DNA from: Minisyncoccota bacterium
GTDB lineage: Bacteria > Patescibacteriota > Minisyncoccia > Phycocordibacterales > SBAW01
Direction: 5' to 3'
Length of the DNA: 64,000 bases
Assembly: GCA_035546575.1 (NCBI GenBank)
Contig: DASZWN010000001.1
Span: 212,875 to 276,874 of the forward strand
The notes under the pieces: generated by a model
Databases searched by the model: none
What the model was told of the DNA's origin: nothing
Seen by the model: the letters and a program-made list of their open reading frames with translations, nothing else
In this document: positions 211-58,749 of the stretch, one piece after another
How the letters are laid out: each line of letters opens with the position of its first letter
Numbering within the stretch: the stretch's first letter is position 1
Translations under genes and position numbers: made by a program

Positions 211-383
211 TTTAACACTTCTGAAACGGACAAGAGACGAGCTTGGCTTTCGGTCGCACTTTGCCGTCGCAAAGTTCGCCTGCAGCCCCGGCTCGCGGCC
301 CCACCAGTGTGGGGCATCGCTGTGCCGTTCAAGTCCCTTTGCAAGCAAAATTGTTTGCTTGCAACTCTCGCTTACGTAACAAA

Positions 384-405
384 AAAGCCCCGAAGGGCTT
401 TTATT
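384..405. terminator. Bidirectional intrinsic terminator-like hairpin (GCCCCGAAGGGGC flanked by A/T runs)
   Basis: aaaaaaGCCCCgaagGGGCttttatt directly downstream of the minus-strand tRNA-Asp. Confidence 0.5.
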
Positions 406-1326: not shown

Positions 1327-1390
1327 CAAAAGAAAGAATTCCTGCCTTGTGCAGGAATTTTCTTTTGGCGGCCGGGATTGAACCGGGAGG
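1300..1390. repeat. Long imperfect inverted repeat (about 40-bp arms) spanning the tRNA-Thr(CGT) T-arm/3' end, centred on a terminator-like hairpin GAATTCCTGCcttgTGCAGGAATTttcttttgg
   Basis: 1303-1317 CCGGTTCAATCCCGG is mirrored by 1372-1386 CCGGGATTGAACCGG; inner hairpin 1336-1366. Confidence 0.5.
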
Positions 1391-1571
1391 GGTGAGAAAT
1401 CGCGGGGCGATTTCGCAAGACCTTTTGAGAGACTTTCGAAGAAAGTATCCAAAAGGTGTACTGCTCCTGTAAGGAGCGGGGAGGAACATGTGCCTCCCCG
1501 TGGAGGAATTCTTCAAAACCGTGGGTTTTGAAAGGCCGTCTTCAGTAGTATGCTACTGAAGACGGCCAGGA

Positions 1572-2474
1572 GTGAGATCCCGGCCTCCGGCTCAAGTGGA
1601 AAAGGAACACCTAGAAAAGCGTATCAAAGAGATAGAGGGCGCCATGACGGCGGCCGATTTTTGGAGCAACCCCGGGGAGGCCCAAAACATGATCAAAGAG
1701 CTGCAAGAGCTTAAGCTCCAGGCTGAAGGCGGCGGCAAGTACGACCTTGGCGGCGCCATTATGACAATCGTGGCCGGCGCGGGCGGAGACGATGCCGAGG
1801 ACTTTGCGCACATGCTCTTTGAGATGTATCGCAAATTTATCGAACGCTTTGGTTGGTCATACAAACTGCTTCACGAAAACCAGAACGACCATGGCGGCTA
1901 CCGCAACCTCTCAATCGAGATAGTAGGGAAGCGGGTGTACGGCACCCTCAAAAACGAATATGGAGTCCATAGGCTCGTGCGCATCTCGCCGTTTAACGCA
2001 AACCAAAAGCGCCAGACATCTTTTGTACTGGTGGAAGTATTGCCGGTGCTTGAGAAGGTGTCCGACATAGAGATCCCCGATGACGATTTGGAGATTACGG
2101 TGGCGCGCTCGGGCGGCCCCGGCGGGCAAAACGTCAACAAGCGCGAGACTGCGGTACGCGTGGTGCACAAGCCCACAGGTATCAGCGCGCACGTAGACGG
2201 CGAGCGTACGCAAGGTGCCAACAAAGAGAAGGCGCTCGCGATTGTCAAAGCAAAACTGCTCCACCAGATGGAAGAGGAGCGCAAAGAAAAGATTTCCGAC
2301 CTCTCGACAGCCTCCGGCAAGATAGAGTGGGGCAACCAGATCCGCTCCTATGTGCTCCACCCGTACAAACTGGTTAAAGACCACCGCACCGAGGTAGAGG
2401 TTCGCGATGCAGAGAGCGTGCTCGAGGGCAATATTGAGCCTTTCCTCCAAGGTGCAACGTCATTGACCGAATAG
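1572..2474 (+). CDS. prfB: Peptide chain release factor 2 (RF2), N-terminally short form; start uncertain (GTG 1572, GTG 1596 or ATG 1644)
   Basis: Conserved RF2 core: [16 protein letters not shown](SPF), [10 protein letters not shown](GGQ), WGNQIRSYV; no upstream CTT-TGA-C frameshift site and an in-frame TGA at 1557. Confidence 0.8.
1577..1594 (+). repeat. Exact 18-nt direct repeat of the tRNA-Thr(CGT) 3' end (ATCCCGGCCTCCGGCTCA; first copy 1311-1328)
   Basis: Identical 18-mer read directly from the sequence; the intervening 250 bp contains at least five perfect hairpins. Confidence 0.6.
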
Positions 2475-11150: not shown

Positions 11151-11774
11151 GTGTACTATAGGCAGGTGGAGGAAGCACGTATCCAGCCAAGCGACCCATC
11201 TCGCTCAGCGCGAGCCGAGACGGACGAAGAGCTCGCACGCCGCGTACAAAGCGGCGACAAAGAAGTCTTCGGCGCTCTGATGGAGCGCTACGAACAAAAG
11301 CTATTGCGGTATGGCGCAAAGTTTTTGGCCACCCACGATGACATTGTCGACATCGTGCAGGATGTATTTATCCGCACCTACCAAAACATCCAGAGCTTCG
11401 ACACATCGCAGCGGTTTTCTCCCTGGATATACCGCATCGCCCATAACGCCTTTGTAAATGCGCTCAAGAGGAGATCTTACAATCCACTGACGCTTGTCGA
11501 TTTTGATACCTTTATCTCGCATGTGGCCTATGAGGATCCGGCTCCTAAAGAGCGTGAACGTAAAGAGATGCGAGCAATGATAGACAAAGGGCTCGAAGAG
11601 CTCCAACCTAAATACCGCGAAGTGCTCATACTCCACTACCTCGAAGATATGCCATACAAAGAAATAGCCGATATTTTACAGATACCTTCGGGTACCGTGG
11701 GTATCCGCATCAAGCGCGCAAAAGAGGCGCTTAAGGGCGTGTATCAAAAAATGAATTTGGACTATGGAGCATAA
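11151..11774 (+). CDS. ECF-type RNA polymerase sigma factor (sigma-70 family group 4)
   Basis: Region 2 (VQDVFIRTYQNIQSFD...FSPWIYRIAHNAFVNALKRR) and region 4 HTH (MPYKEIADILQIPSGTVGIRIKRAKEALK); GAGGAG SD before GTG. Confidence 0.8.
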   Translation: MYYRQVEEARIQPSDPSRSARAETDEELARRVQSGDKEVFGALMERYEQKLLRYGAKFLATHDDIVDIVQDVFIRTYQNIQSFDTSQRFSPWIYRIAHNAFVNALKRRSYNPLTLVDFDTFISHVAYEDPAPKERERKEMRAMIDKGLEELQPKYREVLILHYLEDMPYKEIADILQIPSGTVGIRIKRAKEALKGVYQKMNLDYGA

Positions 11775-12495
11775 CCCTCACACACAGAGTGTACGCGAAA
11801 GCGTGCTCAACAAAATCCGCACCAACGAGCTCACACAACGCCCACGAATCTTTTTTATGCTCAATGTGGCGGCGGTAGTCTTGGTGGCACTTGCAGTACT
11901 CGTACTCTCGGTGCTTATCTTCAACTTTATTTTGTTCATGCTGCGGATTAACAGCCACGACACTCTTTTGGGTTTTGGTCCGCGTGGCTTAGAGCTGTTT
12001 ATCTATGTGTTTCCATGGCCACTGTTCTTTATCGACGTATTTCTGGTCCTGGCGCTCGAGTGGTTGATCCGTAAGTTCCGCATCGGTTACAAGATACCGG
12101 CACTCTATTTGCTCCTCGGGCTTCTCTTGGCAACCGCCGCCGCCTCGTTCTATATTGATCGCGGTACCGACTTTAACGATAAGCTCCTTCACCGCGCAGA
12201 CCGGCACGAATTGTTTTTTGTAGGCACGTTTGTTGAAGGTGCGCGCCGCCCTATGCCGGGTAGCGGCGTATGCGTATGCACCATAACCGCCATAGCAGGG
12301 AATACTCTTACGGTTGCCGATACTCGCAGCGGCACTACTACCGAGCTCACGGTCCTTTTGCCGCTTGATGACCCTCGCGCCACCACCACCTCGCTCAAGG
12401 TGGGTGATAGAGTATTTATTGCGGGCGATGCCGTTAGCGGAGCACTACGTGCGTTCGGCGTGCGCAAGGTCCCGGTGCAATCGAAGGTGCGATAA
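11764..12495 (+). CDS. Putative anti-sigma factor / membrane protein, translationally coupled to the ECF sigma gene
   Basis: ATG overlaps sigma stop (ATGGAGCATAA); N-terminal cytoplasmic segment, several TM helices, C-terminal domain. Confidence 0.45.
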   Translation: MEHNPHTQSVRESVLNKIRTNELTQRPRIFFMLNVAAVVLVALAVLVLSVLIFNFILFMLRINSHDTLLGFGPRGLELFIYVFPWPLFFIDVFLVLALEWLIRKFRIGYKIPALYLLLGLLLATAAASFYIDRGTDFNDKLLHRADRHELFFVGTFVEGARRPMPGSGVCVCTITAIAGNTLTVADTRSGTTTELTVLLPLDDPRATTTSLKVGDRVFIAGDAVSGALRAFGVRKVPVQSKVR

Positions 12496-12522
12496 TAACC
12501 TTATGTGTAATGTAACCCACAT

Positions 12523-12927
12523 ATGAATCTAAAAATACTCGCAGGAATTATTCTAGCGTTCGTGGCGGTTGCAGGAGGTATATTGTTTTTTATTTCGCCG
12601 AGCGCGCCCGAGCAGGCTCCAACTACTGGAGAGCGGCAAGACCCTTCTCAGCAGGTGTCTACTTCCACCGGCGAAGCATCTTCATCATCCTCGATAAGTA
12701 TGGAGATGGTTGCGGGGCATAATTCTGCGGCAAGCTGCTGGAGCACTATAAACGGTAAAGTGTACGACCTCACTTCATGGATTAACCGCCATCCCGGCGG
12801 ACCGGACGCCATCCTTTCGCTATGCGGCAAAGACGGATCCTCCGCATTTAATGCTCAGCATGGCGGGCAATCTCGCCCCGCCAACGAGCTCGCAGGCTTC
12901 TATATAGGAGACGCTGCGACGCACTAA
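12523..12927 (+). CDS. Cytochrome b5-like heme-binding domain protein, membrane anchored
   Basis: N-terminal TM then GKVYDLTSWINRHPGGPDAI...NAQHG cyt-b5 signature. Confidence 0.65.
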   Translation: MNLKILAGIILAFVAVAGGILFFISPSAPEQAPTTGERQDPSQQVSTSTGEASSSSSISMEMVAGHNSAASCWSTINGKVYDLTSWINRHPGGPDAILSLCGKDGSSAFNAQHGGQSRPANELAGFYIGDAATH

Positions 12928-12931
12928 TCAG

Positions 12932-13366
12932 ATGAGCCTCTACACAGTTGTTTTTTATAGCCACTTAGCGTCGCTCGCGCTTGCTGCTGTGGGTGTGTTA
13001 TATGCCGACAAGCTCGGTTTTTCTTGGTTGCGCGGCAAACAGGAAACACTCCAAAAAATGCATCTTGTATGGGCACATTACCTAGTCTCATGCGCGCTCG
13101 TACTACTTATCCTTTCTGGGTTGTATCTGTTTTGGCCAATGCGCGTATACCTGCTTCATCAATGGCTCTTTTACGTTAAGATGGCGTTCGTGCTTGCGCT
13201 TATCGTAAACTCTTTTGCGATAGGAAAGTTAATGCACACCGCCACGCACACGCCGCATCACACGCTCTCGTGGAGTGAAAAGCTCCCGTTCTATATAAGC
13301 GGCATTGTGTCTATGGTATGTTGGGCGGGTGCCGGAGTAACCGCGCTCCTGCTGTTTTACTTTTAG
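12932..13366 (+). CDS. Hypothetical four-TM membrane protein
   Basis: Four hydrophobic helices, no motif. Confidence 0.45.
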   Translation: MSLYTVVFYSHLASLALAAVGVLYADKLGFSWLRGKQETLQKMHLVWAHYLVSCALVLLILSGLYLFWPMRVYLLHQWLFYVKMAFVLALIVNSFAIGKLMHTATHTPHHTLSWSEKLPFYISGIVSMVCWAGAGVTALLLFYF

Positions 13367-13416
13367 CGCAATGAAATAAAGCAGGCTCACCGGTTGTACT
13401 AAGGGCAAGCAGGCGC

Positions 13417-15252
13417 ATGCCGTTTTTATTATTTTCGACGCTTATAGATATGACACACAGCGCTAAGCAGCTTTATGGTGGGACGGCAAAACGCATTGGC
13501 GCCTGGTTTACCTCGGTTAAAAAGTACGCCTTTGCGCACAAATTTATCAGCGCAATCGTGATCGTCGTCCTGCTCGGGGGCGGGTGGTGGGTGTATGGCA
13601 AAGCAACTGCCGCGCACGCCGAGACGCGCTATGTGCTCGGCAACGTAGAGAAAGGGACGATCATCAGCACTGTTTCGGGTTCGGGCCAAGTGTCAGCGTC
13701 TCGTCAGCTTGATATAAAACCGGAAGTATCGGGTAAATTAATATACATCGGCGTTAAGCCAGGGCAGAAAGTGCAGCAAGGCGCGTTGATCGCTGAAGTA
13801 GATCCTACAAGCGCGCAAAAAGCATTGCGCGACGCGCAAAATAATTTGGAGACGGCAAAACTCACGCTTGAGAAGCTGCAAAAACCGGTAACGGGCCTTT
13901 CCCTGATACAAGCGCAAAATGCCGTAACAAGCGCGCAGGATTCGCTTACAAAAACCTACAGCGACAGCGAAAGCGATATCGTGGCTGCCTTCTTGGCATT
14001 GCCTGATATCATGAGCGGCCTGCAAAACATTGTTATCGGTACTACTGCCAGCCATGGCAGCCAATGGAATATCGACTACTACCGTGATGCCTCTGCCAAC
14101 TACGACAGTAAGGCATTTTCGTATCGTGACGATGCATACAACACCTATATCACTGCAAAAGCGGCGTACGACAAAACATTTGCCGACTACCAGGCCGCAG
14201 GCAACTCGCCGAGCACTGCAACGATAGAGTCGCTCGCTGCTGAGACCAATGACATGCTCAAGACAATTGCTGCAGCGCTCAAGAGCTCAAACTCATTTAT
14301 CCAATTCTATTCCGACACGATTACCAATCATAATCAGAATCCATCGAGTGTTGCGACTGCCGCTATAGCGTCGCTCGGTTCCTACATTAGCACCGCTACA
14401 AACCAGCTCTCGGCGCTCTCCGGCGACACCACAAGCATCAAGACCGGCAAACAAAATATCATTGAGAAGACTCAGTCGCTTGCAGATTTGACCGATGGCC
14501 CGGACGACCTCGATGTGCGCAGCGACCAGCTCACCATTCAGCAGCGCCAAGACGCAGTGACCGACGCGCAGGATACGCTTGCTAAGTATTATGTGCGTGC
14601 GCCGTTTGCGGGCACGATAACTGCGGTCAATGCATACGTAGGCGACGACGCGGGCACCGCTGCTGTCGCAAGCATCATCACCCCGCAGCAGATTGTCGAG
14701 CTCTCGCTCAACGAGGTTGATGCGGCAAAAGTAAAAGTCGGCAACAAGGCAACCCTTACGTTCGACGCTATCGACGACCTCTCGCTCACTGGGAGTGTGG
14801 CGCAAGTAGACTCGGTCGGTGCAGTGAGCCAGGGCGTAGTGAGCTACAAGGTACAGATCAGCCTCGACACCCAAGATGTGCGCGTAAAACCGGGCATGAC
14901 CGTTAACGCGAGCATCCAGACCGACGTGCATACTGATGTGCTTACCGTGCCATCGAGCGCGGTTAAGACGACAAACGGTGTAAGCGTAGTGCAGGTGTTT
15001 ACGCCGCCGCTTGCAGACACAGGCGGTACCGCAGGTGTTGTATCAAAGACGTTGCCTGTGCCTGTGCAAGTTACAACAGGCATTTCCGACGACACCAACA
15101 TCGAGATACTCTCCGGCCTGACAGAAGGAGAGCAGGTGGTGACCCGCACTATTTCCGGCACTGCGGCTGCAGCAACTACGCGCACTACCACTACCAACAG
15201 AGGCGGCTTTGGCGGCGGCGCAGCCCCGGCTGGAGCGGCGATACGACTCTAA
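13417..15252 (+). CDS. Efflux transporter periplasmic adaptor subunit (HlyD/MacA family) with long coiled-coil
   Basis: N-terminal TM, biotinyl/lipoyl-like beta hairpin (EVSGKLIYIGVKPGQKVQQGALIAEVD), long coiled coil, C-terminal beta-barrel; upstream of MacB-like ABC pair. Confidence 0.75.
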   Translation: MPFLLFSTLIDMTHSAKQLYGGTAKRIGAWFTSVKKYAFAHKFISAIVIVVLLGGGWWVYGKATAAHAETRYVLGNVEKGTIISTVSGSGQVSASRQLDIKPEVSGKLIYIGVKPGQKVQQGALIAEVDPTSAQKALRDAQNNLETAKLTLEKLQKPVTGLSLIQAQNAVTSAQDSLTKTYSDSESDIVAAFLALPDIMSGLQNIVIGTTASHGSQWNIDYYRDASANYDSKAFSYRDDAYNTYITAKAAYDKTFADYQAAGNSPSTATIESLAAETNDMLKTIAAALKSSNSFIQFYSDTITNHNQNPSSVATAAIASLGSYISTATNQLSALSGDTTSIKTGKQNIIEKTQSLADLTDGPDDLDVRSDQLTIQQRQDAVTDAQDTLAKYYVRAPFAGTITAVNAYVGDDAGTAAVASIITPQQIVELSLNEVDAAKVKVGNKATLTFDAIDDLSLTGSVAQVDSVGAVSQGVVSYKVQISLDTQDVRVKPGMTVNASIQTDVHTDVLTVPSSAVKTTNGVSVVQVFTPPLADTGGTAGVVSKTLPVPVQVTTGISDDTNIEILSGLTEGEQVVTRTISGTAAAATTRTTTTNRGGFGGGAAPAGAAIRL

Positions 15253-15974
15253 TGATAGAAATAAAAAACATTACCAAGACCTACGGCTCGGGAGAAAACG
15301 AGTTCCAAGCGCTTAAAGGGGTGTCGTTTACTATCGAAGACGGCGAGTTTGTCGCTATCATGGGCCCCTCGGGCTCGGGCAAGTCGACACTCATGCATAT
15401 CTTGGGCTGCCTCGACACGCCCACATCCGGCTCGTACCATCTCGACCATAAAGATGTATCTAAGTTAGACGACGAGGAGCTCGCGGAGATCCGCAAAGAC
15501 AAAATCGGATTCGTGTTCCAGTCGTTTAACCTGCTGCCGCGCACCACGGTGCTCCGCAACGTGATGCTGCCGCTTATATATGCGGGAGTGGGGGAAGGCG
15601 AGCGAGAAAAGCGTGCCATACAATCGCTGCTCTCGGCGGGCATGGTAGAGACGCACTTTTTGCACAAGAGCAACGAACTCTCGGGCGGCCAGATACAGCG
15701 CGTGGCTATCGCCCGCGCGCTGGTTAACGACCCGTCGCTTATTCTGGCCGACGAGCCGACCGGCAACCTCGACACGCGCACCGGCGAGATCGTACTCGGC
15801 ACGTTCCAAAAATTAAATAAGGAGCACGGCCGCACTATTGTGCTCATTACGCACGAGCAAGACGTTGCCGAGCACGCAAAGCGCATTATTGTGCTGCGCG
15901 ACGGCGTGATACTCTCCGACAAAAAACATCAGCAGAAAATCGCGCATATCCACAAAGAGGCACAAACATCATGA
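15252..15974 (+). CDS. ABC transporter ATP-binding protein (MacB/LolD type)
   Basis: [35 protein letters not shown]; TAATG overlap with adaptor gene. Confidence 0.9.
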
Positions 15975-17206
15975 CCCTCAAAGACACACTGCAAGAAACA
16001 TATGCCGCGCTCTCGGCCAACAAAGTGCGCTCGGGGCTCACCATCTTGGGCATTGTGATAGGCATCTCGTCGGTTATAGCAATGGTCTCGATCGGGAGCG
16101 GCGCCTCCAACTCGATCTCCTCGAGCATCAACTCGCTCGGCTCCAACTTGCTCCAGATTATGCCGGGTGCCATACGCGCAGTCGGCGGATTCTCGGTGTC
16201 GGCGGGTCGCGGGGGAGCAAAGACGCTCACGCAGGCCGATGCCGACGCGATACTCGCGCAAGTGGCCGATGTGCAGGCGGTGGCATCGGAAGTAACGGGC
16301 CGATATCAAATTACTGCAAAGGGCACCAATACCAACACGACCGTTGATGGCACTACCAGCGGTTATCCTGCAATCCGCAATGTCTCTGTGGCCGAGGGTT
16401 CGTTTATTAGCGACACTCAAAATGACTCTGCTGCAAAGGTTGCAGTACTCGGGCCCACCACGATGACAGACTTGTTTGGCGAGGACGCCGATGCTGCTTC
16501 AGTGGTGGGGCAAGCTATCCGTATCAAGGGCATGGAGTTTAAAGTGATAGGCATCACTGCGGCAAAAGGGGGGAGCGGTTTCAGTAATGCCGACGACATT
16601 ATTTATATTCCGGCAAAAAGCGCCCAGCGCTACCTTTCGGGCGATCAATACCTAACCTCCATAGACGTGCAGGCGGTTAATGCCGACAGCATGACGCAGG
16701 TACAGGCCGACATCACCGCGCTCTTGCTCGACAGGCACCATATCTCCGACGAGACGCAGGCCGACTTTAGCGTGCTCAACCAGGCGGACATCTTGGCCTC
16801 CGCCTCGAGCATCACCGCAACGCTCACGTATTTGCTTGCGGCTATTGGCGGTATCAGTTTGTTGGTGGGCGGCATCGGGATCATGAACATGATGCTCACC
16901 ACAGTGACCGAGCGCACGCGCGAGATAGGCTTGCGCAAAGCAATCGGTGCCAAAAAGAGCGACATCACCAAACAGTTTTTGATCGAGGCAATAGCGCTCA
17001 CGCTTGTAGGTGGCGCTATCGGTATCGCGCTTGGTTGGCTGATATCAGCCGCAGTTAACCTCACGGGGCTTGTCTCAACCAGTGTCTCGCTCACTTCTAT
17101 CCTCATTGCGTTCGGCGTGTCTGCCTTGATAGGCATCGTGTTCGGATACTATCCGGCGCGCCGGGCGGCAGGGCTGAACCCTATCGAGGCGTTAAGGTAC
17201 GAGTGA
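15971..17206 (+). CDS. ABC transporter permease (MacB/FtsX family)
   Basis: N-terminal TM, large periplasmic domain, C-terminal three-TM FtsX domain; 4-nt overlap with ATPase gene. Confidence 0.85.
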   Translation: MTLKDTLQETYAALSANKVRSGLTILGIVIGISSVIAMVSIGSGASNSISSSINSLGSNLLQIMPGAIRAVGGFSVSAGRGGAKTLTQADADAILAQVADVQAVASEVTGRYQITAKGTNTNTTVDGTTSGYPAIRNVSVAEGSFISDTQNDSAAKVAVLGPTTMTDLFGEDADAASVVGQAIRIKGMEFKVIGITAAKGGSGFSNADDIIYIPAKSAQRYLSGDQYLTSIDVQAVNADSMTQVQADITALLLDRHHISDETQADFSVLNQADILASASSITATLTYLLAAIGGISLLVGGIGIMNMMLTTVTERTREIGLRKAIGAKKSDITKQFLIEAIALTLVGGAIGIALGWLISAAVNLTGLVSTSVSLTSILIAFGVSALIGIVFGYYPARRAAGLNPIEALRYE

Positions 17207-17267
17207 ACAAATCTCCTTCGTAGAAGGAAGATTTTTCACAAATTAATAGAGAAAGATTTAAAAATAT

Positions 17268-17723
17268 ATGAGCAAAAACAATAAAATCATCGCAGCTGTA
17301 GTTGTAGTTGTGCTTATGGGCGCAAGTTTTTACGGCGGCATGGTCTATGCAAAAAGCGGTACTGGTGCGCGAGCTAACTTTGCCAATGGCACCACAGTTA
17401 CCTTTACCCGCGGCATGGGTGCGGGCGGCATGGCAGGCGGTCGCGGTTTTACGAGCGGCGGGTTTACGGCAGGCAAAATCATCTCGAACTCCGGCACCAG
17501 CATCTCGATCCAGCAGCAAAATGGCAGCAGCAGCGAGATAGTACTCATTAGCCCGTCAACGCAGATACTAAAATCGGCGTCTGGCACGGCGAGTGACCTT
17601 ACGGAGGGTACGCAAGTCACGGTTACGGGTACGACTAATAGCGATGGCAGCGTTACAGCGCAGTCCATCCAGATCCGCCCAGCGGGTGTGGGGTTTGAGG
17701 TACGCGGAGCACAGACACAATAG
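17268..17723 (+). CDS. Hypothetical exported Gly/Thr-rich protein
   Basis: TM anchor, GMGAGGMAGGRGFTSGGF glycine-rich segment, C-terminal beta-rich domain. Confidence 0.5.
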   Translation: MSKNNKIIAAVVVVVLMGASFYGGMVYAKSGTGARANFANGTTVTFTRGMGAGGMAGGRGFTSGGFTAGKIISNSGTSISIQQQNGSSSEIVLISPSTQILKSASGTASDLTEGTQVTVTGTTNSDGSVTAQSIQIRPAGVGFEVRGAQTQ

Positions 17724-17748
17724 GTCTTCATCGAAATTTAACTCGGGA

Positions 17749-17781
17749 GTAGCCATACTTACAGTATGGCTATCTTTTTTA
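17749..17781 (+). terminator. Intrinsic terminator
   Basis: GTAGCCATACttacaGTATGGCTAT followed by CTTTTTTATT. Confidence 0.6.
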
Positions 17782-17980
17782 TTGTCATGGGAGTGCTCGT
17801 GCTGGTGGTGTTTGGCCTGGGCCTGGCCCAGTGGGCAGAGGGCGCAGATGCTATTGATAAAGAAGAAAAGCAAAAAGTCCGAGCAGAAAGCCCGCGGTTA
17901 ATAATCCCTTCAGACAGTATCCGTATACTGAGTGAGGTCGAAGCAGATTACTCGCATATTCGCATCTAATCAATAAAAAT

Positions 17981-18118
17981 ATGACAAACGATAATCGCAA
18001 TACGTCGCAGGGCAGCAACAAAGATTCAAATCGCTCAGACACCTCTTCTCAAAACACCAACTCAACAGGCAGCCAGAGCGACAGCTCTCGCGGCTCGATG
18101 GATAACTCGCGAGAGTAA
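17981..18118 (+). CDS. Possible small Ser/Asn/Gln-rich disordered protein (45 aa)
   Basis: ATG-initiated ORF (MTNDNRNTSQGSNKDSNRSDTSSQNTNSTGSQSDSSRGSMDNSRE) followed 20 nt later by a strong terminator; no SD, low complexity. Confidence 0.25.
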   Translation: MTNDNRNTSQGSNKDSNRSDTSSQNTNSTGSQSDSSRGSMDNSRE

Positions 18119-18136
18119 ATCCTACAACATACTACA

Positions 18137-18178
18137 CACAGCACAGCGGGTCGCCCATGCGACCCGCTGTGCTGTTTG
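18137..18178 (+). terminator. Intrinsic terminator (17-bp perfect stem)
   Basis: ACAGCACAGCGGGTCGCccatGCGACCCGCTGTGCTGT followed by TT. Confidence 0.7.
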
Positions 18179-18311
18179 ATATATAAGAGTTTTTGATGTA
18201 TTATATAAGTATAGCTCGGGGCCAGCCCGGCTTCTTTTTATAGTCTAGCGAGTGAGAGAAAAGGAGGGGCTTTCCTTCCTTTTCCGAGCGAGCGACGATT
18301 ATATTCATAAT

Positions 18312-55450: not shown

Positions 55451-55528
55451 TAAACCCTATAAAGTACGATATATACTTTATTGCTGTAGATGTTCAGTAG
55501 GGAACATCTCAAACGGAGGAAAGTACGA

Positions 55529-55699
55529 ATGAACGGTACTCCCAGCCGCTCAAAGTGGAGGAAGCCTGCAGTCAATAAGGCACCGAAGAAAAAGGTGCGC
55601 CCAGCGCCAAAGGTGTCGGTGATAGGCCAATCGGCCAAGTCTGGGCGCGAGCGGTTCCAGGATCGCTACGGGACGTTTCTTTCGGGTATGGGCAGCTAA
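55529..55699 (+). CDS. Small basic hypothetical protein (56 aa, Lys/Arg-rich)
   Basis: GGAGG SD 9 nt upstream of ATG; followed by terminator; MNGTPSRSKWRKPAVNKAPKKKVRPAPKV... Confidence 0.4.
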   Translation: MNGTPSRSKWRKPAVNKAPKKKVRPAPKVSVIGQSAKSGRERFQDRYGTFLSGMGS

Positions 55700-55721
55700 T
55701 CTTGCTCCTTCAGGAGCATTG

Positions 55722-55757
55722 GGCGGTCGAGGAATCCTCGACCGCCTTTTCTTTTTA
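55722..55757 (+). terminator. Intrinsic terminator
   Basis: GGCGGTCGAGGaatcCTCGACCGCC + TTTTCTTTTT. Confidence 0.6.
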
Positions 55758-55785: not shown

Positions 55786-55870
55786 GGAGGGTTCGCATAG
55801 TGGTCTAGTGCGCACGCTTGGAAAGCGTGTGTGGGGCAACCCACCAGGAGTTCGAATCTCCTACCCTCCG
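55786..55870 (+). tRNA. tRNA-Ser (anticodon GGA), type II with long variable arm
   Basis: GGAGGGT acceptor, anticodon stem CACGC/GCGTG loop TTGGAAA, variable arm TGTGGGGCAACCCACC, T-arm AGGAGTTCGAATCTCCT, 3' ACCCTCCG. Confidence 0.85.
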
Positions 55871-55987
55871 CAAAATAATGAGCATGCGAATATATTTTGC
55901 GAGAGGGCACTACAGTACCAATGTACTGTAGTGGGAGATTCGAACGCCGGAGCGATGTTTCGCGAGCACGCGAAACCGTGAGGCGGT
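55871..55987 (+). repeat. 117-bp structured repeat unit, copy 1 (second copy 56777..56893, 3 substitutions, two of them compensatory in a hairpin)
   Basis: caaaataatgagcatgcgaatatattttgcgagagggcActacagtaccaatgtactgtagTgggagattcgaacgccggagcgatgtttcgcgagcacgcgaaaccg...; contains perfect hairpins CACTACAGTACcaatGTACTGTAGTG and GTTTCGCGagcaCGCGAAAC. Confidence 0.7.
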
Positions 55988-56032
55988 GCCCAGACAAAAC
56001 TTTTTGACGAAAAAGTTTTAGTCGCGGGCGAA

Positions 56033-56046
56033 CTCCTACCCTCCGC
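56033..56046 (+). repeat. Direct repeat of tRNA-Ser 3' end (CTCCTACCCTCCGC), copy 2 of 3 (copy 1 = 55858..55871 inside tRNA; copy 3 = 56940..56952)
   Basis: Exact 14-mer repeated; each extra copy preceded by degenerate T-loop-like sequence. Confidence 0.6.
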
Positions 56047-56171
56047 CCGAAGTTTTTAGTATCGGACGTATGCGGACGCCGATGGCTCCGATGTGACGTT
56101 AATGGCCAAAAAGAAATCCGCAGCCATATTTCAGACTGCGGAAATTCTGACGCCGGCGTCGTCATATTATG

Positions 56172-56609
56172 TTATGCGGCCGCGCGCAAACCTTCGAATA
56201 GCTTCTTGTTGAAGCGCTCCATGACACCGTGCAGCACGTGGCTCACCGGCGTGTCGCGGTCGAGGTGTACGGCTTCTTGCGCGAACGGGATCATGCCGAC
56301 CTGGATCGTGACTTCCGTGTGATCCATCTGTGGGTTGAGCGGAAGCAGACGAACATCGCGCACTTCCACTGGCCACGCCTTGTGCCACGAGTCCATGAGC
56401 GCCTGCTCGAGCTGGGCGACAATGCCGACGCATGTGGTCGACGCGACCTTTTCGCGGCCGGAGAGCGAGTAATGGATCTCGTCCTTGTACTCGTCGGCGA
56501 CCCACTTGCGATTGTGGTCGTCCTCGCTTCGCGGCTCACTGCAAAGCGCCGACTTGAATGCCTCGATGATAATTCTTCCATTGATGGGCTTCGAGAGATG
56601 GATTTTCAT
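56172..56609 (-). CDS. Hypothetical protein (145 aa) located between tRNA-Ser 3'-end repeats
   Basis: AGGAAGGA SD 8 nt before ATG at 56609; no recognised motif. Confidence 0.5.
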   Translation of the reverse strand: MKIHLSKPINGRIIIEAFKSALCSEPRSEDDHNRKWVADEYKDEIHYSLSGREKVASTTCVGIVAQLEQALMDSWHKAWPVEVRDVRLLPLNPQMDHTEVTIQVGMIPFAQEAVHLDRDTPVSHVLHGVMERFNKKLFEGLRAAA

Positions 56610-56776
56610 AGCCTGTCCTTCCTTTCATCTGGCCGACTTCCGATGTGGAAAGTACCGCTGTTGCCCAACTAAGTCAACTAAAGTCGGCCGATGTCGATGG
56701 CTCGATTAGCTGCTCCAAAGCCTACCTAGAAACCCTTACGGTGTCTCACCGAGAAAGTTCGAACTGCCAACAGCCC

Positions 56777-56893
56777 GCAAAATAATGAGCATGCGAATAT
56801 ATTTTGCGAGAGGGCGCTACAGTACCAATGTACTGTAGCGGGAGATTCGAACGCCGGAGCGATGTTTCGCGAGCACGCGAAACCGCGAGGCGG
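56777..56893 (+). repeat. 117-bp structured repeat unit, copy 2, preceded by a degenerate tRNA-Ser 3' half (56735..56775)
   Basis: Near-identical to 55871..55987; hairpin stem changes A-T to G-C pair (CGCTACAGTAC...GTACTGTAGCG). Confidence 0.7.
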
Positions 56894-56939
56894 TGGCTAG
56901 CCCGAGGTGAGGGACGACGAACCGAGAGGCGAAGCCGAA

Positions 56940-56952
56940 TCCTACCCTCCGC
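56940..56952 (+). repeat. Direct repeat of tRNA-Ser 3' end (TCCTACCCTCCGC), copy 3
   Basis: 13/14 identity to tRNA 3' end; marks right edge of repeat-flanked segment. Confidence 0.55.
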
Positions 56953-56990
56953 AGATTGCATAAAGTAAGAGGTATAATCACATACTGCAT

Positions 56991-57413
56991 ATGACAACAA
57001 TCAATCCATATATTAACTTCAATGGAAATGCCGAAGAAGCATTTAATTTTTACAAATCAGTATTTGGCGGAGAGTTCGGAAAAATAATCCGCTTTAAAGA
57101 TATTGCGACCGCCGAGTTTCCGGTATCGGATGCTGATGCAGAAAAAATAATGCGCATCGCTCTGCCTATCGGCAACACTATATTGATAGCTAATGATGTC
57201 CCGGAGAGTATGGGTCGAGTGAACGAGAATGAAAACAGGTCAAAGATAGCTGTCATTGCCGACACTAAAGAAGAAGCCGAAAGGATATTCAAAGGCCTTT
57301 CAGAAGGAGGTACAGTAGAAATGCCGATGGATCAAAGCCCTTGGGGCACGTATTTTGCTATGTTCAGAGATAAGTACGGCATCGAGTGGACAGTAGAGTG
57401 CGAACAAAACTAA
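56991..57413 (+). CDS. PhnB-like VOC-fold protein (3-demethylubiquinone-9 3-methyltransferase-domain family)
   Basis: INPYINFNGNAEEAFNFYKSVFGGE ... PWGTYFAMFRDKYGIEWTV family pattern; AT-rich gene immediately right of tRNA-Ser repeat copy 3. Confidence 0.6.
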   Translation: MTTINPYINFNGNAEEAFNFYKSVFGGEFGKIIRFKDIATAEFPVSDADAEKIMRIALPIGNTILIANDVPESMGRVNENENRSKIAVIADTKEEAERIFKGLSEGGTVEMPMDQSPWGTYFAMFRDKYGIEWTVECEQN

Positions 57414-57481
57414 AGACCCACCCTCCTCCCTACAGGTGTATACTTTCGGCAGGTCTTTATTAGTAGATAGTCTTATTTTGC

Positions 57482-57895
57482 ATGGACATTCCAATCAATT
57501 ATCTCGCGGTCGTAGCCTCGGCTCTTATCCCAATGACGTTAGGGTTCTTTTGGTATGGGCCGATGTTTGGCAAACAATGGGCGCATCTCACCGGCATCTC
57601 GATGGACAGTATGCAAAAGGCCCCACCGCTTAACTACGCGATCATGTTTGTGGGCGCATTGTTGATGGCGTTCGGTCTCGACCACTCGCTTATTTTTGCC
57701 AGCACCTATTTGCGCATGGAAGGGGTTTCGGCCGGACTCCAGGCAGGTATTTGGACCACGGTGAGTTTTGTTGCACCTGTTATGCTCGGCGTAGTGTTGT
57801 GGGAGGGCAAGTCGTGGAAGTTGTGGGGGATTAACGTCGGCTACTACCTTGTCTCACTGTCTCTCATGGGTGTTTTGCTCGCACTTTGGCGGTAG
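57482..57895 (+). CDS. DUF1761 family membrane protein
   Basis: Four TM helices with FFWYGPMFGKQW motif. Confidence 0.55.
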   Translation: MDIPINYLAVVASALIPMTLGFFWYGPMFGKQWAHLTGISMDSMQKAPPLNYAIMFVGALLMAFGLDHSLIFASTYLRMEGVSAGLQAGIWTTVSFVAPVMLGVVLWEGKSWKLWGINVGYYLVSLSLMGVLLALWR

Positions 57896-58366
57896 ATGAA
57901 AACACTCGCGACCCTTCTCCTGGTGTGCGCGGCTGCTGGGGGCGGATTGTTTCTCTACTATATTGCCCAGAACATGCACCTGACTGAAACGCTCACAGCC
58001 AAAAATACAAAACAAATTAAAGTTGGTACGACGACCATTGCCGCAGAAGTGGTCGACAACCAGGCTGCGCGCGAAAAGGGGCTGTCAGGCCGTACATCGC
58101 TACCGGAGGGGAGCGGTATGCTGTTTGTGTTTGAGCACAACGGCGATTGGGGCATCTGGATGAAGGACATGCAGTTTCCTATAGATATACTTTTTATTTC
58201 GGAGACAGGGCAGGTTGTCTCGATCAATGCGAATGTGTCGCCGGATACGTATCCCGAGGCATTTTATCCGCCACTGGCTGTGCGCTACGTCCTAGAGCTG
58301 CCCGCCGGATACGCAAAAAAACAGAATATTACTACCCAAAGCAGATTTGACCTCTCATCTATATAG
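57896..58366 (+). CDS. DUF192 domain protein, membrane anchored
   Basis: GLSGRTSLPEGSGMLFVFE...GIWMKDMQFPIDILFI pattern of DUF192. Confidence 0.6.
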   Translation: MKTLATLLLVCAAAGGGLFLYYIAQNMHLTETLTAKNTKQIKVGTTTIAAEVVDNQAAREKGLSGRTSLPEGSGMLFVFEHNGDWGIWMKDMQFPIDILFISETGQVVSINANVSPDTYPEAFYPPLAVRYVLELPAGYAKKQNITTQSRFDLSSI

Positions 58367-58432
58367 ATATAGACGCGTCCGCCTTGGCGTCGAGACAGGC
58401 AAATCCCGCCTTGTAAGGCGGGATTCACATCT

Positions 58433-58749
58433 AGCGCGCGTATCTGTAAGCCGAATTCTGTCCTGCCTGCCGGTAGGCAGGCGTGAGTCGCAATTTATCT
58501 GGGACCACAGTCGCCTGCGGCCTCAAGCGGCACTCATCGGGATTGCTCCCGAAGCACGGCCTTGCACTTGGGTAGGGATTTAGCCGTTTCACTCCCGCTA
58601 AAGGGATTCGTCACTGTTCGCACCCCTTTTGCCCGCCAGGAGCAAATGACAGGGATTACCTGCTACCTTTGCCACGCATTGCTGCGCGGCCAAGTGTTCG
58701 GACTTTCCTCTATAATCTTTCGACTACAGCTGCTACTCAATACGCTTCC
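58433..58749 (-). ncRNA. rnpB: RNase P RNA (bacterial type A)
   Basis: Minus strand carries CR-I GGAAAGUCCGAAC, CR-V GACAGAAUUCGGCUUACAG, P1 pairing GCGUAU/AUACGC, P4 with bulged U, GCAAGGCC...CUUGAGG P15-P18 region; lies in a 490-bp ORF-free gap. Confidence 0.75.

Follow-up and report, generated by a model that had tools for sequence, protein, structure and literature searches.

Introduction

Islands that integrate at tRNA genes, such as P4-like elements and the tycheposons of Prochlorococcus, are delimited by direct repeats of the tRNA 3′ end. They accumulate in tandem at one tRNA, the empty site can be found in relatives, and the copy carried by the island restores the tRNA. The same features were seen behind the tRNA-Ser(GGA) gene of a Minisyncoccota bacterium, in a 64,000-nucleotide (nt) stretch of contig DASZWN010000001.1 (the whole stretch is called the window below), which belongs to a metagenome-assembled genome placed in Candidatus Paceibacterota (Patescibacteria/CPR). 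At this locus the tRNA is followed by two copies, A and B, of a conserved element of approximately 175 nt, for which we propose the name "tRNA-end mirror element"; each copy is referred to as a unit. A first-pass annotation of the window had described three tRNA-Ser ends and a repeated 117-bp segment, and had interpreted them as the footprint of serially integrated and decayed elements. This interpretation missed the main point, which is the existence of a widespread and covarying family mirroring the 3′ third of the adjoining tRNA gene, and apparently undescribed.

Several other systems resemble the units. The integron attC site is an imperfect palindrome acting through a folded single strand, as we propose for the units, and its structure is conserved above the sequence of its stem. 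It ends promoter-less single-gene cassettes of unrelated function, which form arrays beside a fixed primary site. Cassettes devoid of an open reading frame (ORF) exist, and the repeats within one array can be near-identical, as is the case here. In the XerCD-dependent attP of the CTX phage, an integrative mobile element exploiting Xer (IMEX), two inverted copies of the target lie about 90 nt apart, the folded single-stranded DNA mimics the double-stranded target of the host, and the enzyme is encoded elsewhere, as proposed for the units. The inverted terminal repeat (ITR) of the parvovirus AAV (adeno-associated virus) adopts a T- or Y-shaped fold of approximately 125–150 nt, in which a long stem is closed by two small hairpins with motifs at their tips. 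Among RNAs, the tRNA-like domain (TLD) of transfer-messenger RNA (tmRNA), mascRNA, the viral tRNA-like structures (TLS) and YrlA share with the units a closing helix made of the acceptor and T stems, a retained discriminator and the strand of the tRNA. Finally, repetitive extragenic palindromes (REP/REPIN) and repeats resembling miniature inverted-repeat transposable elements (MITE) are, like the units, short non-coding hairpins found after genes and near terminators, with an enzyme proposed to act in trans.

Two Copies of a Conserved Element Follow tRNA-Ser(GGA)

The sequence mirrored by the units is formed by the last 24 nt or so of tRNA-Ser(GGA), which comprise the T loop, the 3′ strands of the T stem and of the acceptor stem, G73 and a C. 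Its 13-nt end, TCCTACCCTCCGC, was present in three exact copies (55859-55871, 56034-56046 and 56940-56952), as already noticed in the first-pass annotation. A search for this 13-mer allowing up to two mismatches returned four sites versus 1.18 expected. The repeat, reported to be about 97% identical between the two copies, could be extended to a block of 121 nt (55868-55988 and 56775-56895) with 118 identical positions (97.5%). The differences between copies A and B were A/G at 55909/56816, T/C at 55932/56839 and T/C at 55979/56886. The first two make up the compensatory pair that had drawn attention to the locus, A-T in copy A and G-C in copy B, inside the 11–13 bp hairpin hp1. The last one corresponded to a G-C pair becoming G-U in a different helix (pair 72-116 in the RNAalifold result), so that all three differences keep the pairing.

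The repeated object is larger than 117 bp. It covers approximately 175 nt in both copies (Table 1) and takes in the second and the third tRNA ends, which belong to a conserved element as its own 3′ arms and are not scars left by decayed ones. The degenerate T-loop-like sequence described ahead of these repeats is likewise the conserved 3′ strand of one of the helices of the element. Each unit begins with a spacer. The 5′ arm comes next; it reads as the tRNA end in antisense and is in most cases interrupted by hp1. Two helices bearing the hairpins hp2 and hp3 make up the core, and the unit closes with the 3′ arm, in which the tRNA end recurs in sense orientation. The complete 5′ arm, which had been overlooked, is the reverse complement of the tRNA sequence GTTCGAATCTCC-TA-CCCTCCGC, interrupted by hp1, and the 3′ arm CGAA(T)CTCCTACCCTCCGC pairs with it. 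The fold predicted on the tRNA strand has a Y or T shape, with a closing stem of approximately 20 bp representing the tRNA from the T loop to the 3′ end as a duplex. Folded as RNA, the whole units A and B reached −74.3 and −75.7 kcal/mol, respectively (z −6.8 and −6.7); with DNA parameters the value was −46.8 (z −9.0). The 3′ third of unit B corresponded to a second natural type of hp3 with tandem G.A in its stem, common to the loci L016, L017, L020 and L034 (comparison loci are given as L numbers). Since this type of hp3 also occurs in other metagenomes, the two units are not a recent copy and its degenerate counterpart but mosaics.

Short-read contigs end at the repeat, as they would if the repeat had been collapsed or expanded during assembly, a concern that had accompanied the initial description. 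However, Logan contigs from two independent runs matched 55868-56804 and 56860-58627 at 99.8–100% identity, with breaks solely inside the repeat. They extend from unit A through the cargo into the beginning of unit B on one side, and from unit B to the downstream PhnB-like gene on the other. An equivalent architecture was present in about 20 loci from other assemblies, and the probability of an assembly artefact can be considered negligible. When the proteins of the window were looked up for strain variants of the locus, only short contigs of the same population were found.

A Covarying Family Behind tRNA Genes

One scan of metagenomes with a single 20-mer query (GAGATTCGAACGCCGGAGCG) retrieved 23 loci, about 20 of which displayed the complete architecture on contigs other than that of the window. 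Upstream of most of them an intact tRNA-Ser was directly adjoining, with anticodons GGA, CGA, TGA, GCT or ACT. The sequences of the stems varied freely between loci yet stayed paired, and RNAalifold detected compensatory changes in 26 of the 33 pairs. In the alignment of the core, produced by MAFFT blind to structure, 95.8% of the cells were paired, compared to 33–43% when the partners were slid by 1–3 columns. Cells with a double change numbered 93, compared to 8–21 in the slid controls, and the observed covariation was reached by none of 500 shuffles. The units are conserved structured elements with covariation beyond controls, and the early suggestion of an arm-type recombination site or a small RNA under structural selection was a step in the right direction. 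In all 23 cores the sense strand gave the more stable fold, the mean advantage over the antisense strand being 5.6 kcal/mol, and the same was observed with DNA parameters. The count of wobbles in the stems (8 G.T versus 5 A.C) is a small difference for the assignment of a strand.

A covariance model (CM) built from the units, as the first-pass annotation had advised, found further copies, including one behind tRNA-Asp in the window. Using Rfam 15 with permissive thresholds around all units, only tRNA passed; the best other scores were obtained for sX4 (28 bits for a cut-off of 70) and Clostridiales-1 (15 bits for a cut-off of 48). Neither ARAGORN nor Rfam recognized the units as tRNA or tmRNA, and a literature search retrieved no report of comparable elements. 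With no entry in Rfam or in the literature searched, the family appears to be undescribed. In the GTDB representative genomes, the 20-mer gave three matches of 20–23 nt, treated as chance, the rest of the unit being missing. BLAST searches with the unit returned nothing from a phage collection and one 35-nt match (E=0.5) from a plasmid collection.

The Arms Track the Neighboring tRNA

Members of the family were found 30–60 nt 3′ of tRNA-Ser, Asp, Thr, Leu, Val, Arg and Phe genes in many Patescibacteria, and the arms matched the neighboring tRNA at all units. The window itself holds four units of three diverged types (CM scores of 112 bits, 60 bits and undetected). In the unit located behind tRNA-Asp(GTC), the 5′ arm is the complement of the end of tRNA-Asp, with its TTCAAGT loop, and not of tRNA-Ser. 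The 3′ arm is a decayed copy of the same tRNA-Asp end, and a canonical terminator hairpin separates the tRNA from its unit. The unit behind tRNA-Thr(CGT) is longer and possesses a different core, which represents a second core family. It is related to the unit following tRNA-Phe in L038 (1700-1860, minus strand) through a shared AAAACCGTGGGTTTT hairpin. In this L038 unit, the direct repeat expands to approximately 60 nt and takes in the terminator, and the loop of the hairpin is flipped (ATAA versus TTAT). The direct repeat of L020, 49 nt in size, also takes in the spacer/terminator; across units, the length of the direct repeat varied from 19 to approximately 60 nt.

Locus L035 carries units after tRNA-Ser, Leu, Val and Arg, with CM scores of 99 versus 46, 44 and 16 bits, and the Ser-type units are alike across genomes. 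In L022, a tRNA-Ser(GGA) with its unit and a tRNA-Ser(ACT) with its unit lie in tandem. Their spacer, hp1 and core are closely alike by eye, and the arms are fitted to each tRNA (GCGGAGGG versus GCGGAGAA; GAGAG versus GTGAG). At three G.U pairs of the tRNAs (G4.U69 in Asp and in the Ser of L036, G49.U65 in the Leu of L035), the 5′ arm has an A, the exact complement of the 3′ strand, and not the G present in the tRNA itself. Inverted and direct copies of the last 24 nt of the tRNA were both detected by a sequence-independent search in 16 of 40 tRNAs, a sample skewed toward unit-bearing loci (upstream controls 5–8, a few of them higher beside neighboring tRNAs or units). It was through this search that the second core family came to light.

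About half of the sequences inspected by eye showed a hairpin and a subsequent T-run separating the tRNA from the unit. The 3′ arms were frequently decayed and the T part of the 5′ arm was intact. The tRNA end, the spacer and the 5′ arm together constitute one long quasi-palindrome centered on the terminator loop, and the palindromic TTCGAA of the T loop is present at both core junctions. ARAGORN called a tRNA-Ser with the unusual anticodon ACT in L022 (2381-2468), L028 (4404-4488) and L033 (229-316), each followed by a unit; in L028 and L033 it lies beside a normal tRNA-Ser(GCT).

Inserted DNA and Empty Site

The relatives share the gene order GroES-GroEL-LemA-HtpX-[variable]-DUF1761-DUF192-TPR-MurJ-LepA. 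The comparison of related loci, also recommended in the first-pass annotation, revealed an empty site in L015, where a near-identical tRNA-Ser (one difference in the D loop) is followed by DUF1761 within approximately 45 nt. The flank GTGTATACTT, located directly after the tRNA in L015, recurs in the window at position 57436, preceded by a 10-nt remnant of the tRNA end, and consequently the segment from 55872 to approximately 57432 corresponds to inserted DNA. The idea of integration at the 3′ end of tRNA-Ser is supported by the inserted DNA and, at least, by the cargo segment; it is not supported for the second and third repeats, which belong to the units.

The DNA between the 3′ arm of unit A and the spacer of unit B, 0.73 kb in size, appears from its sequence to behave as an inserted island. 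Homology to sequences in L013, L012 and L036 was found for its left end (CCGAAGTTTTTAGTATCGG...). In L013 this left end abuts tRNA-Ser, and a large serine recombinase is encoded approximately 5.5 kb downstream. The sequence immediately following the L013 tRNA (11347-11393) and that following the 3′ arm of unit A (56047-56092) form a small hairpin with the stem GGAGG(T)/ACC(C)TCC, whose strands resemble those of an acceptor stem, and the loop (T)GACG, reminiscent of a miniature unit. The cargo encodes a protein of 145 amino acids (aa), for which a full HMMER scan found five homologues at 34–47% identity, indicating a small but real family. The protein had no match in Pfam, PHROG or NCBIfam, a word-indexed search matched only the protein itself, and the AlphaFold model (predicted local distance difference test, pLDDT, of 45) was too poor for a fold search. 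The closest homologue, in L047, has no unit nearby. It adjoins an AT-rich IS200-like insertion with a Y1 transposase (261-998) and matching terminal hairpins (TTAGCAAGG...CCTTGCTAA), which is unrelated to the units.

At the right end of the cargo, what had been taken for a degenerate tRNA-Ser 3′ half is indeed a degenerate tRNA, in the form of a full-length pseudo-tRNA (Table 1) sharing derived features with a homologue in L030, which comes from another metagenome. The glyoxalase/PhnB-like gene beyond unit B, correctly described as AT-rich, constitutes a further inserted segment bounded by the 3′ arm of unit B and the 10-nt remnant. It is absent from L015, L009 and L012. A similar PhnB-like gene is found on the opposite strand, directly after HtpX, in the contig encoding P0003, an HtpX homologue that ranked among the closest listed (86% identity). 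Elsewhere, an FkbO-like chorismatase gene is bracketed by two units in L036. L030 and L034 each present a cargo, a pseudo-tRNA end and a unit in succession, and the matching end, a tRNA with its unit, was found in L031, which derives from the sample of L034. The cargos set beside unit copies at different loci are mutually unrelated.

Comparison with Described Systems

Direct repeats of the tRNA end (at 55859, 56034 and 56940, and the remnant at 57417) flank DNA that is absent from L015, as in tRNA-targeting islands. In islands, however, the repeats have neither an inverted partner nor a structured core, and the integrase normally lies beside the tRNA. Here no unit lacks the inverted arm or the covarying core, most units are gene-free, and the 55872-57432 segment encodes only the 145-aa protein and the glyoxalase-like protein, with no integrase. 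Compared to attC, with its universal R boxes, the stem of the unit reproduces the end of its neighboring tRNA and differs from one tRNA to another. With respect to the R″ and R′ boxes (RYYYAAC...GTTRRRY), the 5′ arm of the unit ends with ...TTCGAAC and the 3′ arm begins with (G)CGAAT and has no GTT. The center of the unit is conserved in sequence, whereas that of attC is variable. No IntI-like gene was found nearby, and the anchor is a tRNA gene instead of attI. The units differ from the attP of CTX by their target, the T-loop-to-3′-end segment of a tRNA in place of dif, by their total size of approximately 175 nt and by the absence of phage genes; moreover, their single-stranded intermediate is only something that we infer.

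The likeness to the AAV ITR is one of shape only, with no Rep gene, viral context, sequence similarity or location at the end of a linear genome, and the flipped loop of L038 gives a hint of flip/flop. Contrary to the tRNA-like RNAs, the unit has no free T loop or elbow, the UUCG being paired with CGAA in the consensus fold, and its 5′ strand complements the 3′ strand instead of copying the 5′ strand of the tRNA. The differences from REP/REPIN and MITE-like repeats are that the copies within a genome are not near-identical, that the arms are target-specific and that the repeat length is not fixed. No REP-associated tyrosine transposase (RAYT) was found, the Y1 transposase of L047 being part of the unrelated IS200-like insertion. 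Other candidates were considered and set aside, namely tmRNA or permuted tmRNA, retron non-coding RNA (ncRNA), bridge RNA, omega RNA, group II intron, self-cleaving ribozyme and K-turn snoRNA-like RNA. The partner gene (reverse transcriptase, IS110 recombinase or TnpB) was absent, the size was wrong, or Rfam gave no match.

A Model for the Element and Its Alternatives

We tentatively propose that the element is a non-coding site-specific integration/recombination module. In this model, the unit would be active once folded as a single strand, as are the integron attC and the attP of the CTX phage, with a stem imitating the tRNA-gene target. The conserved hairpin loops (AGCA, GACG) and the G.A motifs would be recognized by a recombinase whose gene lies elsewhere. 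By integrating in the T loop, the element would bring a new tRNA 3′ third together with a terminator, and the displaced old 3′ third would become the 3′ arm. Versions bearing a cargo would give rise to cassette-like arrays anchored on the tRNA. The exact complementarity of the 5′ arm to the 3′ strand of the tRNA is expected if both were once the strands of one hairpin. Because of this complementarity, of the hairpins with a T-run lying between tRNA and unit in about half of the sequences, of the repeats that include the spacer or terminator, of the decayed 3′ arms and of the unit copies bracketing cargo, we slightly favor a module acting at the DNA level, a sense-strand ncRNA being almost as likely. 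The empty site in L015 and the better fold of the sense strand were also counted for the DNA-level reading.

Several observations weigh against a recombination module. No recombinase was recognized among the 25 commonest of the 87 families matched by 73 neighboring ORFs, nor in 20 neighboring ORFs scanned singly, the remainder of the window not being exhaustively scanned. A weak Pfam match to DEDD_Tnp_IS110 among the neighboring ORFs was probably a cross-hit of RuvX, and none of the 20 singly scanned ORFs carries it. The genes beside the units are ordinary and varied, with no recurring enzyme. No free, excised or circular form of a unit was seen, and a search of the IMG/VR viral contigs with motifs of the unit and of the island left end found no real unit. 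A double-stranded circle of 175 bp would be very small. The divergence of units located at different tRNAs of one genome looks like long vertical persistence, which could equally mean a functional RNA, and conserved loop sequences and tandem G.A motifs are encountered more typically in RNAs than in the recombination sites described so far. In addition, the 20 invariant columns of the core stem from the pattern used to collect the homologues; motifs outside this pattern, namely CGCGAGGCGGTGCCCAGAC, the AGCA and GACG loops and the G.A mismatches, are also conserved. The loci examined were chosen for carrying a unit, which biases the frequencies.

It is possible, and hardly less so than a module, that the units are structured ncRNAs of the sense strand, transcribed with the tRNA or from a start of their own just after it. 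The closing helix would then present the acceptor/T helix of the tRNA, or the 5′ arm would pair with the 3′ third of the tRNA or its fragments, and the RNA might serve as a processing signal, as a decoy for enzymes targeting the acceptor end or as a sponge. The cargo insertions would be secondary, since the 3′ arm duplicates the target site of islands. Such an RNA would fit the strong covariation over three hairpins and two helices, the conserved tetraloops (AGCA/AGUA and GACG) and G.A motifs, the better fold of the sense strand and the invariable location of the units downstream of the tRNA and in its orientation. Conservation by tRNA type across genomes with divergence within a genome is the behavior expected of old functional genes, some units (L032, L033 and the Phe unit of L038) are followed by a terminator-like hairpin of their own, and TANNNT hexamers were often seen by eye 4–6 nt ahead of the 5′ arm. 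Yet the hairpin and T-run separating the tRNA from the unit in about half of the sequences leave too little space for a standard promoter, and a promoter scan of the tRNA-Ser region found none. The 3′ arm, which closes the fold, is badly decayed in several units. The behavior of the 5′ arm at the G.U pairs argues against true tRNA mimicry, and with the T loop paired away, enzymes recognizing the tRNA elbow should not bind. The wobble count is nearly balanced and Rfam holds no matching family.

Two further readings fit the data much less well than the recombination module and the ncRNA. The units might be a functionless by-product of template switching or fold-back priming at the terminator hairpin of the tRNA, which would create both the inverted and the direct duplication of the tRNA end, the hairpins being kept symmetrical by quasi-palindrome correction. 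The long quasi-palindrome around the terminator loop, the variable length of the direct repeat (sometimes with the terminator), the flipped loop of L038, the TTCGAA at both core junctions and the exact complementarity of the arm all go in this direction. We nevertheless regard this origin as improbable, as it accounts neither for a core of approximately 100 nt with sequence motifs common to different tRNAs and many genomes, nor for the interleaving in L022, where the arms alone differ, nor for the extent of covariation across divergent copies. Less probable still is the first-pass annotation taken literally, with attachment (att) scars of serially integrated and decayed islands and the 117-bp segment as an arm-type integrase site. 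The insertion relative to L015, the homology of the cargo left end to the L013 sequence with its downstream serine recombinase and the frequency of insertions at this locus in relatives are in line with it. But the identical repeat structure exists behind many tRNAs with no island or integrase, the inverted arm is left unexplained, covariation of hairpins is unexpected for arm-type sites bound by proteins as double strands, and no integrase is present in the inserted segment. The existence of solitary units at housekeeping loci largely refutes the att-scar model.

With the same reserve as for the module itself, we suggest that Patescibacteria carry phylum-wide, hitherto unrecognized "shadow" elements behind a large share of their tRNA genes, corresponding either to an integron-like, tRNA-anchored capture of genes or to tRNA-matched regulatory RNAs. 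Each would consist of antisense and sense copies of the last third of a tRNA around a conserved three-hairpin core, tailored to that tRNA. If the units are recombination modules, they would represent a new route for capturing and arraying genes, with a folded copy of the tRNA gene end as attachment site, operating in tiny genomes thought to be poor in mobile elements. They would also explain why the flanks of tRNA genes are hotspots of variable genes. In the case of RNAs, the units would constitute an extensive new class of structured molecules matched to tRNAs, every member being paired with a single tRNA species, which would bear on tRNA maturation, surveillance or defence in the candidate phyla radiation. 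Under both readings, the family is abundant, as illustrated by the four units of the window and by the more than 25 obtained in one scan, its covariation is strong, and a covariance model is ready for use.

Features of the Window and Neighboring Genes

The coordinates of the units and associated features are listed in Table 1.

Table 1. Units, tRNA genes and inserted segments in the window (P_a and P_b are the two core helices).
Feature	Position	Strand	Evidence or remark
tRNA-Ser(GGA)	55786..55871	+	ARAGORN; Rfam tRNA 55.1 bits
Unit A, complete (~175 nt)	55872..56046	+	Fold; CM match 55935-56033, 112.5 bits
Unit A, spacer AAAATAATGAGCATGCGAATATATTTT (27 nt), quasi-palindromic	55872..55898	+	Kept in tRNA-Ser(GGA) units of L019, L020, L037
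Unit A, acceptor part of the 5′ arm, GCGAGAGGG (complementary to CCCTC-CGC)	55899..55907	+	
Unit A, hairpin hp1, with compensatory pair 55909/55932 (A-T in A, G-C in B)	55908..55933	+	
Unit A, T part of the 5′ arm, GGAGATTCGAAC (reverse complement of tRNA GTTCGAATCTCC)	55934..55945	+	
Unit A, helix P_a (GGA/GA internal loop) and hairpin hp2 (loop AGCA)	55946..55986	+	Covariation
Unit A, P_b helix with hp3 hairpin of type 1 (perfect AT-rich stem; GACG loop)	55987..56030	+	Covariation
Unit A, 3′ arm CGAACTCCTACCCTCCGC, second tRNA-end repeat of the first-pass annotation	56029..56046	+	
Cargo insertion (145-aa ORF and pseudo-tRNA)	56047..56778	.	blastn; exactly between 3′ arm of A and spacer of B
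145-aa ORF	56172..56609	-	Terminator-like hairpin 56142..56117
Full-length degenerate tRNA-Ser-like pseudogene	56693..56778	+	Not called by ARAGORN
Unit B, complete	56779..56952	+	Fold; CM 109.6 bits
Unit B, spacer	56779-56805	+	
Unit B, 5′ arm	56806-56814 and 56841-56852	+	
Unit B, hp1	56815-56840	+	
Unit B, P_a/hp2	56853-56893	+	
Unit B, P_b/hp3 type 2 (tandem G.A)	56894-56937	+	
Unit B, 3′ arm	56936-56952	+	
Glyoxalase/PhnB-like gene	56991..57413	+	Pfam PF00903, PF06983; GC 0.43 versus ~0.52 around
CCCACCCTCC, degenerate fourth copy of the tRNA acceptor 3′ strand (10-nt remnant)	57417..57426	+	
Third unit, 3′ of tRNA-Asp(GTC) 412-486	227..402	-	CM core 241-337, 60.5 bits
tRNA-Asp unit, terminator	381-402	-	
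tRNA-Asp unit, 5′ arm, GCGAGAG and GGGACTTGAAC	365-371 and 327-337	-	
tRNA-Asp unit, 3′ arm	227-245	-	
Unit of the second core family, 3′ of tRNA-Thr(CGT) 1254-1327	1328..1594	+	-138 kcal/mol, z -9.5
tRNA-Thr unit, terminator-like spacer	1328-1366	+	
tRNA-Thr unit, 5′ arm	1367-1387	+	
tRNA-Thr unit, 3′ arm	1577-1594	+	

Between HtpX and tRNA-Ser, a 69-aa ORF rich in Lys and Arg (55490-55699) had no family match. It is followed by a strong terminator hairpin (55721-55747), located just ahead of the region upstream of tRNA-Ser. Between DUF192 and the TPR gene, a partial sub-threshold match to RNase P RNA was observed on the minus strand (58431-58500, 18.7 bits, model positions 306-367). It may mark a divergent RNase P RNA, none being found at the gathering score anywhere in the window.

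The flank of HtpX and tRNA-Ser is a hotspot of insertion in the relatives. An island encoding Mrr, a DNA methylase and an HATPase occupies 11190-16500 in L008, and the L013 island (11400-18200) carries a methylase in addition to its large serine recombinase. A SWIB-domain gene is present in L009 (10944-11198), and an XRE-like regulator (by eye) with an MvaI/BcnI restriction enzyme (Pfam) in L020 (1300-2230). The tRNA-Ser(GGA) gene and its upstream region have opposite orientations in L008-L011 and in L012, L013, L015 and the window, which indicates that the HtpX-tRNA-Ser-DUF1761 locus has been inverted at least once.

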